Source: a virus
Taxonomy: Duplodnaviria > Heunggongvirae > Uroviricota > Caudoviricetes
IMG/VR virus record: IMGVR_UViG_2548876962_000006
Span: 1-16,814 of that record
DNA: 16,814 nucleotides
Strand: one strand, 5' to 3'
The notes below the pieces were generated by a model, which saw only the letters and a list, made by a program, of their open reading frames with translations, did no database searches and had not been told where the DNA came from. Positions 1-6,337 of the stretch are shown piece by piece; the first letter of the stretch is position 1, and the number at the start of each line of letters is the position of its first letter. The translations under genes and the position numbers were made by a program.

Positions 1-519
1 TCCATTCCGGCTGGTTTTAAAGCACTGGCTGACATGAGTCCGTTTGAATCCCTGCTGATTGTGGATTTAGGCGGAACCACGCTGGATGTGGCAAAGGTTC
101 AGGGACAACTGGCAGGTATCAGCCAGGTGTTTTGCGATCCACACGTAGGCGTTTCTCTGATGGCCAATGCCGTACTGTCGGTGATGGCCACTAACGGTAT
201 GCGCACCAGTCACCACATCGCCAATACCATTATCGAACATCGCCATGATGAAGCCTGGCTGCGCCAGCACATCCACAATGACGCACATTACAACAGCCTG
301 ATGGCGGTTATTCGTGAAAAGGAAGAAACACTGAAACAACGTGTACTCCGCGCGCTGGCGAGCTTTTCGGGTTACGGGCGGGTGATGGTTGTCGGTGGAG
401 GGGCGGAGATTGTGGCACCCGCTGTCCGCGAAGCCTGCGGAGTTAATGCGACTTTTATCGCGGACGGGGTGCCACAGTTTGCTCTGGTTAATGGGCTGTA
501 CGCAATGGACAAGGAGTAA
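1..519 (+). CDS. parM: ParM/StbA-like actin-type plasmid segregation ATPase, C-terminal part (5' end lies outside the window)
   Basis: Frame 1 is open from base 1 to the TAA at 517-519. The translation contains actin-fold motifs (LLIVDLGGTTLDVA; RVMVVGGGAEIV) and a C-terminus (FALVNGLYAM) resembling R1 ParM. A parR-like gene follows 4 bp downstream. Confidence 0.7.
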   Translation, partial: SIPAGFKALADMSPFESLLIVDLGGTTLDVAKVQGQLAGISQVFCDPHVGVSLMANAVLSVMATNGMRTSHHIANTIIEHRHDEAWLRQHIHNDAHYNSLMAVIREKEETLKQRVLRALASFSGYGRVMVVGGGAEIVAPAVREACGVNATFIADGVPQFALVNGLYAMDKE

Positions 520-909: not shown

Positions 910-1110
910 ATGATGAAAAGACTGACATTACTTTTTTCGCTGTTTTTCATTCCGTTGGCGCATTCAACCACGCCGAACTGCGCAACGGAAAAGAGCAACA
1001 CCGTCATCGTTGTCCAGTGCGATGACGGCACGGTGACAATCACCGACTCAAGTAAGGGAAGCGTCCTGGTCTGTCGCAAAGGACACCTCTGTCAGCACAC
1101 TGAACTTTGA
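910..1110 (+). CDS. Small secreted cysteine-rich protein of unknown function (signal peptide plus about 47-aa mature part with 4 Cys)
   Basis: GAGG at 901-904 five nt before ATG 910. N-terminus [19 protein letters not shown] is a typical Sec signal peptide. The mature part has four Cys (C-x17-C...C-x5-C), consistent with a disulfide-bonded periplasmic mini-protein. No family recognised. Confidence 0.5.
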
Positions 1111-1121
1111 AGGAGAAAGAG

Positions 1122-1454
1122 ATGACCACATCGCATTCTGCAATTACCGAGGAAAAAGCCTTCCACATACTCGAACGACTGGAGGCGCTCGCCACAGAGG
1201 AAGAAATCGCCCCGGAGAAACTGGTTGAGTGCTGCCGTGTGATGTTGCGCCGCAAGAACGACATCGCGAGGCTGACATCCTACACATCATCCGTATCTAT
1301 CAGGCAAACGCTTTATTGCAGCTTCTGCAAGAAACCACAGCACGCCATCAAAAAGTTAATTGCCGGGGACGACGTTTTCATCTGCGACGAGTGTGTGGAA
1401 GTGTGCAACAGCGTTATCCGAGAAGAACAAGGAACGCAGGGAGCAGGAAGATGA
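1122..1454 (+). CDS. Stand-alone protein with a C-terminal ClpX-type C4 zinc-binding domain (ZBD)
   Basis: ATG 1122 preceded by AGGAG at 1111-1115. The C-terminal segment [40 protein letters not shown] aligns residue-by-residue with the E. coli ClpX N-domain ([40 protein letters not shown], recalled from memory) including all four Zn-ligand Cys. There is no AAA+ module. The N-terminal 55 aa are acidic/helical and unrecognised. Confidence 0.7.
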
Positions 1455-1520
1455 ATGACGAATTTGACGGCTTTTAATTTTATCGGGGCGCACTGTCGCC
1501 CCCGCACTAAGGAAAACACG

Positions 1521-2045
1521 ATGAAAAAAGATGAATATCTGTTCATGACGAACGCGTTGCGGGTTGGTCTGGCCCCCTGCCCTGTCTCCGTGGAGTCTGT
1601 TGTCGGGAACACGATTTTTCGAACACTGCGCGATCGCGTCTCCGTGAAAATGATTCATCCGCTACCCAAAACCGCCAGCATGATCTATCTGCCGTTGCCC
1701 GACGCGATCCGGCTCATGCGTTCGCTGAAATTTGCGATTTGGATGCAGACACAACTCAACAAAGCAGTACAAAACACCTTCGTTAAGAGATTGATGCCAG
1801 AGCTTGCCGCCAGATGCGCAAAATGCACCAGACCAGCACTTCACTTTGATCTGTCGTTGATTCAACGCGCTGCCGAATCCGAGTTCTACCGACTTACCTT
1901 TATCCGTCATGCGCGACATGAGGACAAAGAGATGCGCCGCCTTTTGAATCTGTTTGTTTTTTCCGTTCGACGCACACGCGTTCAGGTCAATCGCATGATG
2001 CAGGCACAGGAAGAGCTGACGCAACACAAAGGAGTCATCCAATGA
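1521..2045 (+). CDS. Hypothetical basic protein (174 aa), unknown function
   Basis: ATG 1521 preceded by AAGGA at 1509-1513. Its stop overlaps the next start (ATGA at 2042-2045), indicating translational coupling. An alternative start at ATG 1455 (overlapping the upstream stop) is possible. Arg/Lys-rich; no family recognised. Confidence 0.5.
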   Translation: MKKDEYLFMTNALRVGLAPCPVSVESVVGNTIFRTLRDRVSVKMIHPLPKTASMIYLPLPDAIRLMRSLKFAIWMQTQLNKAVQNTFVKRLMPELAARCAKCTRPALHFDLSLIQRAAESEFYRLTFIRHARHEDKEMRRLLNLFVFSVRRTRVQVNRMMQAQEELTQHKGVIQ

Positions 2046-2581
2046 GCAAGATTGACTATCAGGCACTGCGTGAAGCGGCAGAGCAGGCAATACATGATGA
2101 CTGGGGATATGATGCGGATATTTTCCATGAACAGGTGACACCATCGGGTGTGCTGGCGTTGCTGGATGAGAATGAAAGAATGTGCTGCAACCTCATCGCC
2201 CGCAATGGTGAGATTGAAGGGCTTCGAAGGCGGGCTGCTGAACTGGAAAAAATCGCCACGGACTATGCACTTAAATTCCAGAAAGCACAGGATGCACTAA
2301 AGTACGCCGTGTTAATGCGTAACAAAGCGCTTTCTTTTGAAGAGGCGATGCAATGTACAAAAGAAAAATACGAGGGAGTCATAAAAAAACTTGCCAAAAA
2401 CGAGCATCCAGTCTCACCAATACCAAAACCAGAGAATGACAAATTTACCGTATCGATCCCGGACCCAAAGGAGTATTTCATTAACGGCGTATTCCAGCCT
2501 TTGCGATACGAACGGGATGTTGAGCAAGCCATCATAAAGGCAGGCGGAAAAGTCTCGTGGCAGGAGACAGAAGATAATTAG
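2042..2581 (+). CDS. ead/Ea22-like family protein (lambdoid-phage accessory protein)
   Basis: N-terminus MSKIDYQALREAAEQA and the following coiled-coil segment (LLDENERM...GEIEGLRRRAAELEK) are typical of the Ea22-like family found in lambdoid prophage early-left regions. Start is coupled to the upstream gene. Confidence 0.6.
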   Translation: MSKIDYQALREAAEQAIHDDWGYDADIFHEQVTPSGVLALLDENERMCCNLIARNGEIEGLRRRAAELEKIATDYALKFQKAQDALKYAVLMRNKALSFEEAMQCTKEKYEGVIKKLAKNEHPVSPIPKPENDKFTVSIPDPKEYFINGVFQPLRYERDVEQAIIKAGGKVSWQETEDN

Positions 2582-2648: not shown

Positions 2649-2962
2649 TTTTTTTGAACGACTTTTTACCCTTCCGGCCCGCGTGGCGGCTGGATCCGTA
2701 AAGGATCCGTGCGTGCACAAAAAAACGCGTTTTTGTTGCGCGCGGGTGCCGGGGGAACAGCCCGCAATTTGGGGTCTGAAAGCACCCTCAGAAAGCGCCA
2801 GAAATGCGGCTGATTGCGCCCCTGACGCGATGTTTTTTGTTGGGGTATCGTGTGTATTGCGCGATCTCATTCGCACTCTGTGGCTTGTTCTGGATGTGTG
2901 GTGCAGTCCGCGCCATTGAGGAGCGTGACAGGATACAGATGACATCAACAGAAGGAGGAGCC

Positions 2963-3466
2963 GTGGGACACTTTGAGGATTTGTGTTGCATTAACCGGGA
3001 TGTGGAAAGAAAGCGTTATCGGGCCACTGAAATCTTACGGGATGAGGCCCGTAGCCTGGTCGGGTTTTATGAGGACTGGCTGGGGCTTCCGTCGCTGTAC
3101 CGCGAACACGAACACGGCGAGTCGCGGCCTTATGTGGAAACAGGCCTGCCCTGTCGGAACGCGGAAGACTTTCGCGCCTGTTCTGTTAATCAAATCCCTG
3201 TCGCAGCAGACGGTATTTTCCATGTGGCCGTGCGTACATGGATTGAATCACTGTCGGGTATTGAGCCGGTTGATATTGTTGTTGCGTTTGAGTTGCATTC
3301 GGTGAGCGAAGCTCGCACTACGCTGAAAGTCACCGTGGAGGATGATGTTTCTGTTCGCGTGAGCATTACTGCGCCGGAAGACAGGAAATGGACGGGGGTG
3401 ACGAAAAGCATGAAAAGACACATCGCCGTCCGTCTGAAAAAACGCGCTCCGTTTGCACTTCGTTAA
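2963..3466 (+). CDS. Hypothetical protein (about 167 aa), unknown function, last gene before the Q stop and cos region
   Basis: Open frame 2804-3466. Best start by RBS is GTG 2963 (AAGGAGGAG at 2952-2960); alternatives are ATG 2939 and ATG 2804, the latter adding a hydrophobic Cys-rich N-terminus. No family recognised. Confidence 0.45.
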   Translation: MGHFEDLCCINRDVERKRYRATEILRDEARSLVGFYEDWLGLPSLYREHEHGESRPYVETGLPCRNAEDFRACSVNQIPVAADGIFHVAVRTWIESLSGIEPVDIVVAFELHSVSEARTTLKVTVEDDVSVRVSITAPEDRKWTGVTKSMKRHIAVRLKKRAPFALR

Positions 3467-3482
3467 GCCGGAGCTGGTGAGT

Positions 3483-3507
3483 CGGGGCATAAATTTTTTA
3501 TGCCCCG
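3483..3507. terminator. Perfect 11-bp-stem hairpin (CGGGGCATAAA-TTT-TTTATGCCCCG) between convergent genes; candidate bidirectional terminator and/or cos-associated structure
   Basis: Read directly. It lies in the 67-bp gap between the plus-strand gene ending 3466 and the minus-strand Q gene ending 3534. No flanking U-tract on either strand. Confidence 0.35.
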
Positions 3508-3533
3508 GCGAAGCAGCAGACAAGCGCAGCGCG

Positions 3534-4583
3534 TCAGGATGTGGGCGGGGCATCCAGCAGTGCGTAAGGGTTAAAGCGGATCACCTCCTCACCCAGCCAG
3601 TCATTAACGTGCTTCATCGCCTCCATCACCGGCATCAGTTCGTTGATCGCAAACACTCTTGCCGCCTTCTCCACATCACCAAATGACCCCTGTCCGCTGG
3701 GCATTGCGCCCATCAGTTGTGGTGGTACGCGGTGAGCAGCCAGCACATCATCGCGGGAGGCCGCCTTGACGTTCATAAACTCATCCCGGGCGGTGATCTG
3801 CTGGAACGGCAGGATTTGCACACCGTCCTTCCCGCCGTTCGGTGCCTGGAGCAGCAGGTTTTTGAATGCCCCACCGCCTCTTGCACCCTGCAACGCTCTT
3901 TCGAGCGCCTGCATGCTTTCGCGGTCAACCTGTGCTGCTCCCACGTAAATAATGCAGCCTGCGTGTGAACCGTTGTCATAGTAGAGTTTGCGAAAACGAT
4001 CTGCCGAATGCGACAGACTGGCAGACAACAGGCCGCCGAGATATTCCGGCATTCCGTACATCTCCTGGTTGATGTCAGGGTTCAGCACATGACAGACGCG
4101 CCCCTGACGGAACTCGTGGTCCTGCTCGCCCGTCTGTACAAACCAGTACACATCCGGCTCAACACCACGACGGACGTATTTTGCCAGGGCATGGCGCAGT
4201 TCCAGTTTTCCGCCCAGCCTGTTGGTGCGCAGTTCAAGAAACGCATTCCCGAAGACAAACCAGTCCAGCGCAAAGGCGGAGAACGCCTGCCGGGACAGCA
4301 GCCGGTGCGGAATGAAGCAGCCCAGAATGGCATTTCGTTTGAAGTACAGCGCCGACTGATGCCACGAGGTCTGCCGGGATGCCCGCGCCAGCCCGTACCA
4401 GTCAACGGGTGTTTCGTAGTACCTGCCGTTACTCAGGCAGTATGCGTTATCCAGCAGGTCGAGCGCGTGCGCATCGTAAGGGCCATCGAACGAGAAAGCG
4501 CTTAGCGACGGCTGGCGGCGCAGTGCCTCTGCCAGCTCCACGCCGTCATCGCGGCGGGTATATTTTCGTTTTTGTTTTTTCAT
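3534..4583 (-). CDS. Q: Portal protein (P2 gpQ homologue)
   Basis: 349-aa ORF, size and position as for P2 Q (about 344 aa), immediately downstream of and overlapping the terminase gene; start codon overlaps the P stop. Confidence 0.9.
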   Translation of the reverse strand: MKKQKRKYTRRDDGVELAEALRRQPSLSAFSFDGPYDAHALDLLDNAYCLSNGRYYETPVDWYGLARASRQTSWHQSALYFKRNAILGCFIPHRLLSRQAFSAFALDWFVFGNAFLELRTNRLGGKLELRHALAKYVRRGVEPDVYWFVQTGEQDHEFRQGRVCHVLNPDINQEMYGMPEYLGGLLSASLSHSADRFRKLYYDNGSHAGCIIYVGAAQVDRESMQALERALQGARGGGAFKNLLLQAPNGGKDGVQILPFQQITARDEFMNVKAASRDDVLAAHRVPPQLMGAMPSGQGSFGDVEKAARVFAINELMPVMEAMKHVNDWLGEEVIRFNPYALLDAPPTS

Positions 4584-6337
4584 CAGAACTCAATCACCCG
4601 CATTCCTGTTGCACCGTCCTCATCGCCCAGCGGCTCGTTAATGACGGCAAGCATGGTTGCCCACGCGAGGTCGCCGTGGTTTACGCCGCGCGTGCGGTCT
4701 GTTTCATACGTTATTGCGCCGCCCGCCGTTTTTGCCTTGCGCACGGCGTTGAATGCCCTGACCAGCTCACGTTCGCCCCGGTCATACTCCCAGCGCCCTG
4801 CACGAATAATCTGCAACATCTTCAGCACAAGCGCGCGTTTGGATGCCAGCGTGAACGTGTACGGTACGGCGGCAGGCCAGAACCGCCGCACTATCTGGTA
4901 CACTGCCTCACCGTTACCGCCGGTCACGTCGATGCCAATGTGCCGGACGTTGTATTTGTGCGTGAACTGCTCAATCACACGGGCCTGCTCTTCAAATTCC
5001 AGCCCCTGCACCTGCAAGGTCTCCACCGTGCGGAATTTGCCGCCCCTGACAGCAGGTGGTACAACAACAGACAGCGCCCCGCTGTCGCCATTACCGCTGC
5101 TGCCGTTAGCGTCGTAGCCAATCCACACGGGACGATTACCCACGGGACGTGCTGCGAACGGTTTCCAGTCATTCCACTCGTCATAGCCATCCACGCCACA
5201 TCCCAGCAGGGCATTAAGATCGAAGGCGGATTCGCCGTCGCTGACAAACTCGCACATGTAGAGATTGCGGAACTCATCCGGCGTGTTCATGTTGCGGATT
5301 TTGTCGATACTGGTGAGCGTCCAGCCCAGGTCCACAGCATCCTGAATCGTCACGATTTGCCGCCACGCACTGTCGGGGCACAGCACTCCACTCTTCAGGG
5401 CGTGATGGGACACATCAATCTCCCTGCGCTCACTGCGTGGTCGCCCTGCATTCCACCGCGCGCCGTTCCAGAACTGAAACGCCTCGTGCATCTCCGATGA
5501 CGGCGTGGAAAAGTAGGTCTGCGTCAGGCCATTCAGCGTGGCCATCGCGCCTGCGACCTTGCGCAGCGTGATGAAGTTCGACACCCAGAAAAATTCGTCA
5601 AAATACAGATTGCCCGTATATGACTGTGCAGTCGCGGCGGATGTCCCCAGAAAATGCAGTTCCGCGCCACTGGAAAGCACAATTTTGTCACCGCCTTTCA
5701 GCTCGACGTCCACAGCCTGTGCCGCCTTCTGAATCACGCTTTTAAACTGAAAGGCCTGACGGCGTGAGGCTGACAAAAAAATCTGGTTTCGCTGGTACGG
5801 ATATTTCACGCGCTCATCCAGCGCACGCAGCAGTGCCTCCTGCGCAAAATACCAGGTCGCGCCTATCTGTCGGGATTTCACAATAATGCGAATATCAACA
5901 CCGGCACGGCGGCAGACTTCCAGCGCCTCATACCAGCGTCGCTGATGTTCTGCCAGCTGACCGGTGATGTGTTCGCGCAGTGCGGCAACCTGCGATTCGG
6001 AAAAATGGTTTTTCAGCTTTCGTTTTCGCGGGCTTTTTTCCGCGCAGCCCTTGCTGTCATTCAGTTTTGCGAGCTGGCGTGTCAGCAGGTCGATTTCCTT
6101 AAAATCACCGCCGCTCTTTTCAGCTTTTGAGGTCAGCTGAACCAGCCGCGCATCAATCGACTGCGTGACCCGCTCCACGGGCGGCGTTTCATCCCATCCG
6201 TCGCGCTTTTTCCACGAATAAATCGTGTTCTGACTGATACCCATCAGCCGCGATATTTCAGCGGGCGGGTAACCCTGCCAGTAAAGCTGTTTTGCCCGCA
6301 GCCTGATGAATGCGTCCTGAATCATGTCGTCTGTCAC
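4583..6337 (-). CDS. P: Terminase large (ATPase/nuclease) subunit (P2 gpP homologue)
   Basis: 584-aa ORF divergent from O, as in P2. The ORF-track start is GTG at 6337 with AGGAG directly adjacent; ATG at 6325 (MIQDAF...) is an alternative start. Confidence 0.9.
   Translation of the reverse strand: MTDDMIQDAFIRLRAKQLYWQGYPPAEISRLMGISQNTIYSWKKRDGWDETPPVERVTQSIDARLVQLTSKAEKSGGDFKEIDLLTRQLAKLNDSKGCAEKSPRKRKLKNHFSESQVAALREHITGQLAEHQRRWYEALEVCRRAGVDIRIIVKSRQIGATWYFAQEALLRALDERVKYPYQRNQIFLSASRRQAFQFKSVIQKAAQAVDVELKGGDKIVLSSGAELHFLGTSAATAQSYTGNLYFDEFFWVSNFITLRKVAGAMATLNGLTQTYFSTPSSEMHEAFQFWNGARWNAGRPRSERREIDVSHHALKSGVLCPDSAWRQIVTIQDAVDLGWTLTSIDKIRNMNTPDEFRNLYMCEFVSDGESAFDLNALLGCGVDGYDEWNDWKPFAARPVGNRPVWIGYDANGSSGNGDSGALSVVVPPAVRGGKFRTVETLQVQGLEFEEQARVIEQFTHKYNVRHIGIDVTGGNGEAVYQIVRRFWPAAVPYTFTLASKRALVLKMLQIIRAGRWEYDRGERELVRAFNAVRKAKTAGGAITYETDRTRGVNHGDLAWATMLAVINEPLGDEDGATGMRVIEF

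Follow-up and report, generated by a model that had tools for sequence, protein, structure and literature searches.

A cargo gene of the PHROG 5091 family between cos and the portal gene of a P88-like prophage, with a possible role in phage conflict

What is encoded by the small open reading frame (ORF) at positions 2963–3466 of the virus record IMGVR_UViG_2548876962_000006, and what might such a gene do beside the packaging site of a phage? The DNA analysed, 16,814 nucleotides of that record, is referred to below as the window. A first-pass annotation, made from the letters alone, had presented the ORF as an orphan and a possible second, independent cargo function, such as a toxin or an exclusion protein. 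The first part of the question can be answered with high confidence: the ORF is a real gene, it starts at GTG 2963, and it is accessory cargo in the slot between the left cohesive end (cosL) and the convergent portal gene Q. The second part is answered more tentatively.

Judged by its sequence, the window is a P2-type prophage of the P88-like group (genus Xuanwuvirus, family Peduoviridae). Its megablast neighbours, P88, P88_4B11, Chuche, Shae_phiSM and others, are all P88-like, and the P2-type prophage layout was read from the ORF map together with a Pfam scan of the window. In the prophage or circular map the order is gpA, parMR, other cargo, cos (2622–2765), a leader, the 2963–3466 gene, a hairpin and Q.

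Reading Frame and Start Codon

The gene and its ribosome-binding site are as follows.

2963–3466, plus strand: cargo gene for a 167-amino acid (aa) protein of PHROG 5091; the alternative start ATG 2939 would give 175 aa
2953–2959, plus strand: Shine-Dalgarno sequence AGGAGGA serving GTG 2963, assigned from the sequence and from a matching arrangement in locus L007

The plus-strand frame has no stop between 2804 and the TAA at 3464–3466 and holds three in-frame starts, ATG 2804 (220 aa), ATG 2939 (175 aa) and GTG 2963 (167 aa). The range of 167–220 aa with an ambiguous start, as first described, is therefore a correct reading of the frame. All three lengths have been called in existing annotations, with the 220-aa form in some NCBI records. 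The stop codon also lies where it had been placed, exactly 67 bp from the convergent stop codon of Q (3534–3536, other strand).

Comparison with relatives points to a single start. Locus L007 has an unambiguous ATG preceded by GGAGGA and 3 nt, the same spacing as at GTG 2963 in the window. The more distant orthologues that were found first, P0004 and P0005, have their initial 'MSHF' aligned exactly with GTG 2963, and all 14 subfamily orthologues compared are 167–169 aa long and begin M-[S/G]-H-F there. The same start is seen in all further relatives from a library of 1.84 billion proteins and in another 11 loci, taken from IMG/VR and from a GTDB genome, in each of which the protein is exactly 167 aa long. 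The conserved protein thus comprises 167 aa from GTG 2963; in this clade translation may also begin at ATG 2939, which would add eight residues of no practical consequence.

The gene is under purifying selection. The ratio of non-synonymous to synonymous substitution rates (dN/dS) against three orthologues is 0.12–0.36; in the same pairs of genomes the neighbouring portal and terminase genes give 0.03–0.10. At synonymous sites the divergence is about that of the portal gene, and at non-synonymous sites the protein evolves 4–8 times faster than the portal protein. The hidden Markov model of PHROG 5091 matches the product over nearly its whole length (E = 5.8e-31, 108 bits, residues 3–165 against positions 4–162 of the 164 in the profile). 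Purifying selection, the profile match and the maintained length, start and spacing of the ribosome-binding site together establish that the gene is real.

The longest version of the frame had been thought to add a hydrophobic, Cys-rich segment, which would make the product a 220-aa membrane-anchored toxin or exclusion protein translated from ATG 2804. The frame is indeed open from 2804 in the window, the 220-aa version is annotated in NCBI records, and the N-terminal extension is hydrophobic, with a grand average of hydropathy (GRAVY) of +0.54. The extension is, however, not maintained in relatives: in L006, the protein of which is 87% identical, a 1-nt insertion (an extra T) closes the frame, in L007 a stop stands 66 nt before the ATG of that locus, and L010 does not have the ATG. 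The start of the PHROG profile and of every family member coincides with the position of GTG 2963, and the stretch in question also holds a conserved hairpin and T-run. Positions 2804–2962 are not conserved in frame, and no conserved transmembrane or hydrophobic N-terminal segment of the Sie type was found in them. The long form is accordingly given up as very improbable. Hardly credible at all is the idea that the ORF is non-functional or a decaying remnant. This idea could draw on the unknown function and on the failure to recognise a promoter, but the dN/dS of 0.12–0.36, intact members of 161–184 aa in many genera (167–169 aa in the window subfamily) and a confident predicted fold all speak against it.

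The cos Block and the Slot between cosL and Q

The surroundings of the gene contain the following features.

2622–2765, no strand assigned: conserved cos block (packaging site) of P88-like phages, an invariant block with variable DNA on both sides
2766–2962, plus strand: non-coding leader of about 200 nt that travels with the gene, with a hairpin and T-run at 2813–2831 and a G+T-rich stretch at 2832–2920
3481–3509, no strand assigned: conserved hairpin with a 13-bp stem between the convergent stops (−33.7 kcal/mol, z = −4.55)
3534–4583, minus strand: portal gene Q (Pfam Phage_portal, E = 1.6e-16; annotated as portal in P88, Chuche and Shae_phiSM)

The block running from 'TGCACAATAGTGCAC...' to '...GGGGGAACAGCCCGC' (2622–2765) is essentially invariant in P88, P88_4B11, Chuche, Shae_phiSM, L006, L007 and L010, and this invariance is independent of the presence or absence of the gene in the P88-like phages examined. 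The linear record of P88_4B11 (NC_049391) ends and starts inside the block, at the equivalent of window position 2667, and CGCGTGGCGG at 2680–2689 is similar to the ten bases that open the P2 cohesive end, GGCGAGGCGG. Because of the invariance, the ends of the linear record and the likeness of CGCGTGGCGG, cos is placed upstream of the gene, with a putative cohesive-end region and cut site at about 2667–2698. The conserved block ends about 200 nt before the start of the gene.

The first-pass annotation had expected cos on the other side, taking the P2 cohesive end to lie about 125 bp beyond the stop of Q. In the P2 record cosL occupies 1–19, the tQ terminator 160–181 and Q 187–1221, so that Q ends 186 nt from the cohesive end and the distance of 125 bp has to be corrected. 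Of the suggestion that the gene overlaps or flanks cos, the second half stands, as the gene directly flanks it; there is no overlap, the cos block lying upstream rather than downstream. With cos upstream of it and not on its Q side, the gene is an insert in the cosL–Q slot. The order cos, leader, gene and Q would also make it the first gene at the Q-proximal (left) end on packaged DNA.

Some further elements were seen at the left edge of the block. A hairpin with a 10-bp stem lies just past the stop of the Ead/Ea22-like gene, at 2595–2620, and a palindromic TGCACA trio (AATAGTGCACAAATTTGCACAATTTT) occupies 2627–2652. P2 has repeated GTGCAT motifs on the equivalent side of its cos (L017, 1450–1555). 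The TGCACA and GTGCAT motifs may be binding sites of the small terminase subunit.

The insert is delimited by comparison with relatives that do not have the gene. In P88, P88_4B11, Chuche and Shae_phiSM the cos block and the hairpin are separated by about 230 bp of unrelated sequence, in which only tiny ORFs are annotated. Homology of the window to these phages ends directly behind GCCCGC (2765) and sets in again at about 3470. By this sequence comparison, the gene and its leader replace the approximately 230 bp carried by the sibling phages. Among complete Escherichia coli genomes (n = 5426) the flanks were found in 1141, the whole segment in 2 and the gene at a DNA identity of at least 65% in 30. 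The order cos, gene and Q is kept in 15/15 subfamily loci, the portal proteins of which are 33–99% identical to that of the window. The GC content at third codon positions is 54% in the gene and 67–75% in the portal, terminase and capsid genes. No flanking repeats of the transposon or integron-cassette kind were detected around the insert.

The gene therefore stands between cos and the Q stop, is absent from relatives that share its flanks and has a divergent base composition, all of which characterise phage morons. As to signals of its own, a strong hairpin follows the gene on the 3′ side; upstream, no sigma-70 promoter matching at least 9/12 positions and no Ogr-type box (TGT-N12-ACA) was found. 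The regulatory region first credited to the gene is consequently reduced to the non-coding leader of about 200 nt. The gene is dispensable, since most P88-like phages, including the isolated and viable P88, Chuche and Shae_phiSM, do not have it. The reading as an independent cargo gene is supported: it is an accessory gene flanking cos, horizontal in its pattern of occurrence and independent of the other cargo of the window. The slot is already known as a cargo site, and the gene is, in this respect, a fairly ordinary phage moron.

The first 75 nt or so of the leader are conserved in the gene-bearing loci (the window, L006 and L007, more weakly L010), unlike in the gene-less P88-like phages. 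The hairpin and T-run at 2813–2831 form a terminator-like site, and the G+T content of 2832–2920 is 70.8%. A G/T-rich stretch of similar appearance lies at the left end of P2 (L016, about 90–150). The G+T stretch of the leader could be an extension of the packaging signal instead of a regulatory region. The hairpin at 3481–3509 is also the right boundary of the inserted DNA; its part as terminator of the portal/terminase operon is putative, because no U-tract flanks it. The only Rfam match, to the gyrA RNA family on the hairpin, was set aside as a sub-threshold chance hit (21 bits, against a gathering score of 45).

Distribution of the PHROG 5091 Family

The match to the PHROG 5091 profile makes the protein a full-length member of this family, and the family annotation, 'unknown function', gives no functional clue. 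Its close relatives form five clusters at 90% identity, are 68–99% identical to it and all come from E. coli. Only 8 matches were found among 1.84 billion cluster representatives. A profile search returned 52 proteins, all 'hypothetical', from E. coli, Salmonella, Serratia, Xenorhabdus, Cedecea, Symbiopectobacterium and Trabulsiella, to which cluster members added Yersinia and a genome scan added Erwinia. Every genomic context that could be read is a prophage, and all hosts belong to Enterobacterales. Further loci were collected with the alignment of the window subfamily, the broad family alignment having no sufficiently conserved stretch.

Besides the window subfamily, two others can be distinguished. 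Members of the second ('MVINYKQL...') mostly occupy the same slot next to Q in P2-like phages of E. coli and Salmonella and are also found in isolated phages, e.g., vB_EcoM-705R2; one member, P0041, lies instead just downstream of gpA in a P2-like prophage. The third is found in lambdoid prophages, where its genes lie either between those for antiterminator and holin or between the lysis genes and the terminase genes, and it also occurs among the tail genes of an E217-like prophage. Locus L007 (6001–7175) carries the first two subfamilies in tandem; the two proteins are about 22% identical, and a copy of the hairpin stands between their genes. The slot can thus be seen as two sub-sites, cos-to-hairpin and hairpin-to-Q, each filled by a different family member in L007. 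In vB_EcoM-705R2 and in E. coli sequence type 131 (ST131) only the Q-proximal sub-site is filled (L027, 2229–3025, and L039, 3501–4025).

The paralogue at L039 3501–4025 (WP_000236495.1) is common, being present in 397 of the 5426 complete E. coli genomes, among them ST131 and the enterotoxigenic E. coli (ETEC) strain H10407. At least 99% identity is shared by 282 of these 397 copies, and the prevalence in ST131 is largely that of one near-identical prophage. Table S5A of Rousset et al. 2022 (PMC9122126) contains WP_000236495 as a 'hypothetical' protein in at least 167 entries; no member of the PHROG 5091 family is present in the table of tested systems of the same paper. The window protein itself had no tblastn match in 50,697 phage records or 72,556 plasmids, and among isolated phages only the paralogue subfamily is represented. 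A literature search found no paper mentioning the accessions or PHROG 5091.

Predicted Structure and Conserved Positions

Scans of the 167-aa and 220-aa forms against Pfam and NCBIfam gave no match. A structure was modelled with AlphaFold from an alignment of 32 sequences, an earlier alignment of 6 sequences having proved unusable (predicted local distance difference test, pLDDT, of 48). The model has a pLDDT of 87.1 and a predicted template modelling score of 0.82 and consists of a long N-terminal helix (residues 4–40), an antiparallel sheet (46–134) and a C-terminal helix (139–160). Foldseek searches of the PDB and BFVD returned nothing at E < 1e-3, and a sequence-profile search of the PDB was empty. 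The FP dimerisation domain (PI31/Fbxo7), the actin-capping subunits and type III secretion chaperones of the CesT/SycE type resemble the model in shape only, with identities of 4–13% and Z below 8. No known structural or housekeeping homologue emerged from the structure prediction and remote homology searches; the description of the gene as an orphan is upheld.

The positions that are invariant or almost so throughout the family are L25, A29, Y36, L40, L42, P43, W47, Y57, V58, G61, F70, T92 and V146. The conserved columns are of the core type (hydrophobic, Gly, Pro, Thr), and no acidic, basic, His, Cys or Ser residue is conserved. The 167-aa core has a GRAVY of −0.32, no transmembrane segment and a globular predicted fold. 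The family proteins are predicted to be soluble and mildly acidic, with isoelectric points of 4.7–6.6 and net charges of −1 to −11. Since the conserved positions are of the core type only and the proteins are soluble and mildly acidic, a binding protein is preferred over an enzyme or a membrane protein; on the strength of the model and of the conservation pattern, the product is probably a non-enzymatic binder, possibly acting as a dimer. DNA mimicry, considered as a special case, was ruled out by the isoelectric points and by a net charge of only −1 to −11. A classic toxin is unlikely, because the gene stands alone, with no partner gene and no catalytic or membrane features: no cognate gene of a toxin–antitoxin pair adjoins it in any slot locus, and its sole recurrent neighbour is the paralogue in L007.

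Proposed Function and Its Alternatives

The proposed model is that of a soluble protein of 167 aa (175 aa if ATG 2939 is used), built of helix, beta-sheet and helix, which would work by stoichiometric binding to another protein and not by catalysis, and would serve the prophage in genetic conflict. The first choice is that competing phages would be excluded by a logic like that of P2 Tin, with no homology to Tin. A binder in the cargo slot with a role in prophage conflict, exclusion being favoured, is the best overall explanation, although it is put forward tentatively. Exclusion of phages as the biological role, argued only from the location and from priors, is still more tentative. A conflict role is favoured by the record of the hotspot, by evolution 4–8 times faster than that of the portal protein, by the tandem paralogues of L007 and by the moron sites occupied in lambdoid prophages. 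As a background rate, 15–32% of P2 proteins of unknown function were scored as antiviral by machine learning (PMC13586616).

Several results weigh against host defence by exclusion. The promoter search described above found no recognisable promoter for the gene; PADLOC-DB 2.0.0 yielded 0 families at E values up to 0.1 for the 167-aa and 220-aa forms; and the fold matches are too weak for homology. Members of the family were seen in prophages only, none having been found on plasmids or in non-phage defence islands. The window subfamily has kept one slot and co-diverges with the phage backbone, unlike the rapid swapping described for defence systems, and the late-region location of family members in lambdoid phages suggests expression in the lytic cycle. 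From the prophage-only pattern it follows that a phage-serving function such as anti-defence fits at least as well as host defence.

Anti-defence is therefore the main rival to exclusion. Here the product would be a small inhibitor that neutralises an immune component of the host or of a rival prophage, aiding the infection or induction of its own phage and not protecting the lysogen. A small, fast-evolving protein without conserved catalytic residues would suit this role, as would the restriction of the family to prophages (never outside them or on plasmids), the single slot kept during co-divergence with the backbone, the late-region sites in lambdoid phages and the position as first gene at the left end of packaged DNA. 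Known genes of this kind are, however, rare in P2-like prophages (28 of 1511 elements; PMC13586616), no aca-like regulator gene adjoins, the comparisons revealed no sequence or fold similarity to a characterised inhibitor, and no solved anti-defence protein matched structurally. On balance anti-defence is rather unlikely. A host-directed factor of lysogenic conversion, modulating fitness, stress or virulence as ctx does in phiCTX, is improbable. The slot offers a precedent, with ctx between cosL and Q; the paralogue WP_000236495 is common in clinical lineages (397/5426; ST131, ETEC H10407), and distant members lie at stx-type moron sites of lambdoid phages. Against these points, the protein has no signal peptide, secretion motif or toxin-like fold and no similarity to Ctx, and the ST131 prevalence reflects mostly one near-identical prophage (282/397 copies at least 99% identical). 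More improbable still is a housekeeping accessory of cos and packaging, which would protect DNA ends, help the terminase or portal, or confer resistance to P4-type satellites that share cos. In 15/15 subfamily loci, with portals as little as 33% and up to 99% identical, the gene strictly adjoins cos and the portal and terminase genes, which agrees with such a function, and so does the location of some lambdoid relatives between lysis and terminase genes. The gene is nevertheless dispensable, most P88-like phages being without it, other relatives lie between antiterminator and holin genes or among tail genes, and no packaging or structural family was matched.

It is conceivable, though doubtful, that PHROG 5091 represents a hitherto unrecognised conflict effector made of one protein, its fold being without a solved relative, and that it acts in phage exclusion, against satellites or against defence. 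Such an effector would have been kept for long as the first gene of the cos-proximal left end in P2-like genomes across Enterobacterales, and its tandem divergent copies could reflect different target specificities or the formation of heterodimers. If the family is active, a single-gene effector with a new fold joins the phage conflict systems, and the cargo site on the Q side of cos is functional in itself, beyond the pooled 'gpA–gpQ hotspot'. About 7% of complete E. coli genomes, those of ST131 and ETEC H10407 among them, carry a paralogue, so that a phenotype would bear on phage therapy and on the biology of prophages in clinical lineages. As things stand, the gene is one further conserved hypothetical within a known hotspot.

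Other Genes of the Window

The remaining features annotated on the two sides of the slot are listed below.

34–519, plus strand: ParM fragment (ORF map and Pfam)
up to 835, plus strand: StbB/ParR-like protein (ORF map and Pfam)
910–1110, plus strand: small ORF of 66 aa (phrog_20764, 2.5e-11)
1107–1454, plus strand: stand-alone ClpX zinc-finger protein of 115 aa (Pfam zf-C4_ClpX, 3.5e-16; phrog_6797, 1.8e-49)
1455–2045, plus strand: orphan ORF of 196 aa (no significant Pfam, NCBIfam or PADLOC match; marginal PHROG match, E = 0.089)
2042–2581, plus strand: Ead/Ea22-like protein (ORF map and Pfam)
4583–6337, minus strand: large terminase gene P, followed by scaffold and capsid genes

A partition pair of ParM/StbA and StbB (Plasmid_stab_B), at 34–835 on the plus strand, follows the replication gene. 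The pair is conserved in P88-like phages and is unusual in an integrating P2-type prophage. The product of 910–1110 has a signal peptide-like N-terminus and several Cys residues; at the equivalent position in L006 the gene caller placed a 64-aa ORF on the opposite strand. The zinc-finger protein encoded by 1107–1454 has no ATPase domain. In P88-like and Salmonella P2-like prophages it is found repeatedly among the cargo on the gpA side of cos; it might disturb the recognition of substrates or adaptors by ClpX. The 196-aa ORF at 1455–2045 is a further orphan inside the same gpA–gpQ hotspot.

Comparison with Known Systems

The position between cos and Q is described as a hotspot in a passage of PMC5694545 that cites Dodd & Egan 1996 and Nakayama 1999. 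The closest parallel in layout is ctx of the P2-like Pseudomonas phage phiCTX, with which the window gene shares slot and orientation: cosL, cargo on the plus strand, terminator(s) and convergent Q. The ctx gene differs in that it encodes a toxin and has annotated −35 and −10 signals and two terminators, whereas the window gene has no recognisable promoter. The window protein, predicted to be cytoplasmic and built of helix, sheet and helix, has no similarity in sequence to Ctx.

The same passage of PMC5694545, again after Dodd & Egan 1996, places the retrons Ec67 and Ec86 of 186-related prophages in this slot. As far as that passage describes them, their boundaries are the same as in the window, namely the end of the cos block (2765) and the hairpin (3481–3509). 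Their cargo consists of a reverse transcriptase and a non-coding RNA; that of the window is one small protein without a reverse-transcriptase or nucleic-acid domain.

On a wider scale, the cos-proximal interval between gpA and gpQ is an anti-phage hotspot, more than one third of the systems cloned from it having been active (Rousset et al. 2022, PMC9122126). The tin/old ('TO') region of P2 belongs to the same interval as the window gene. No homology to P2 Tin was detected (hhalign probability 0.1%), and the sides of cos differ, tin and old lying on the gpA side and the window gene on the Q side. Tin, annotated in the P2 record as a single-protein lysogenic-conversion gene that blocks T-even phages, provides the precedent within this hotspot.

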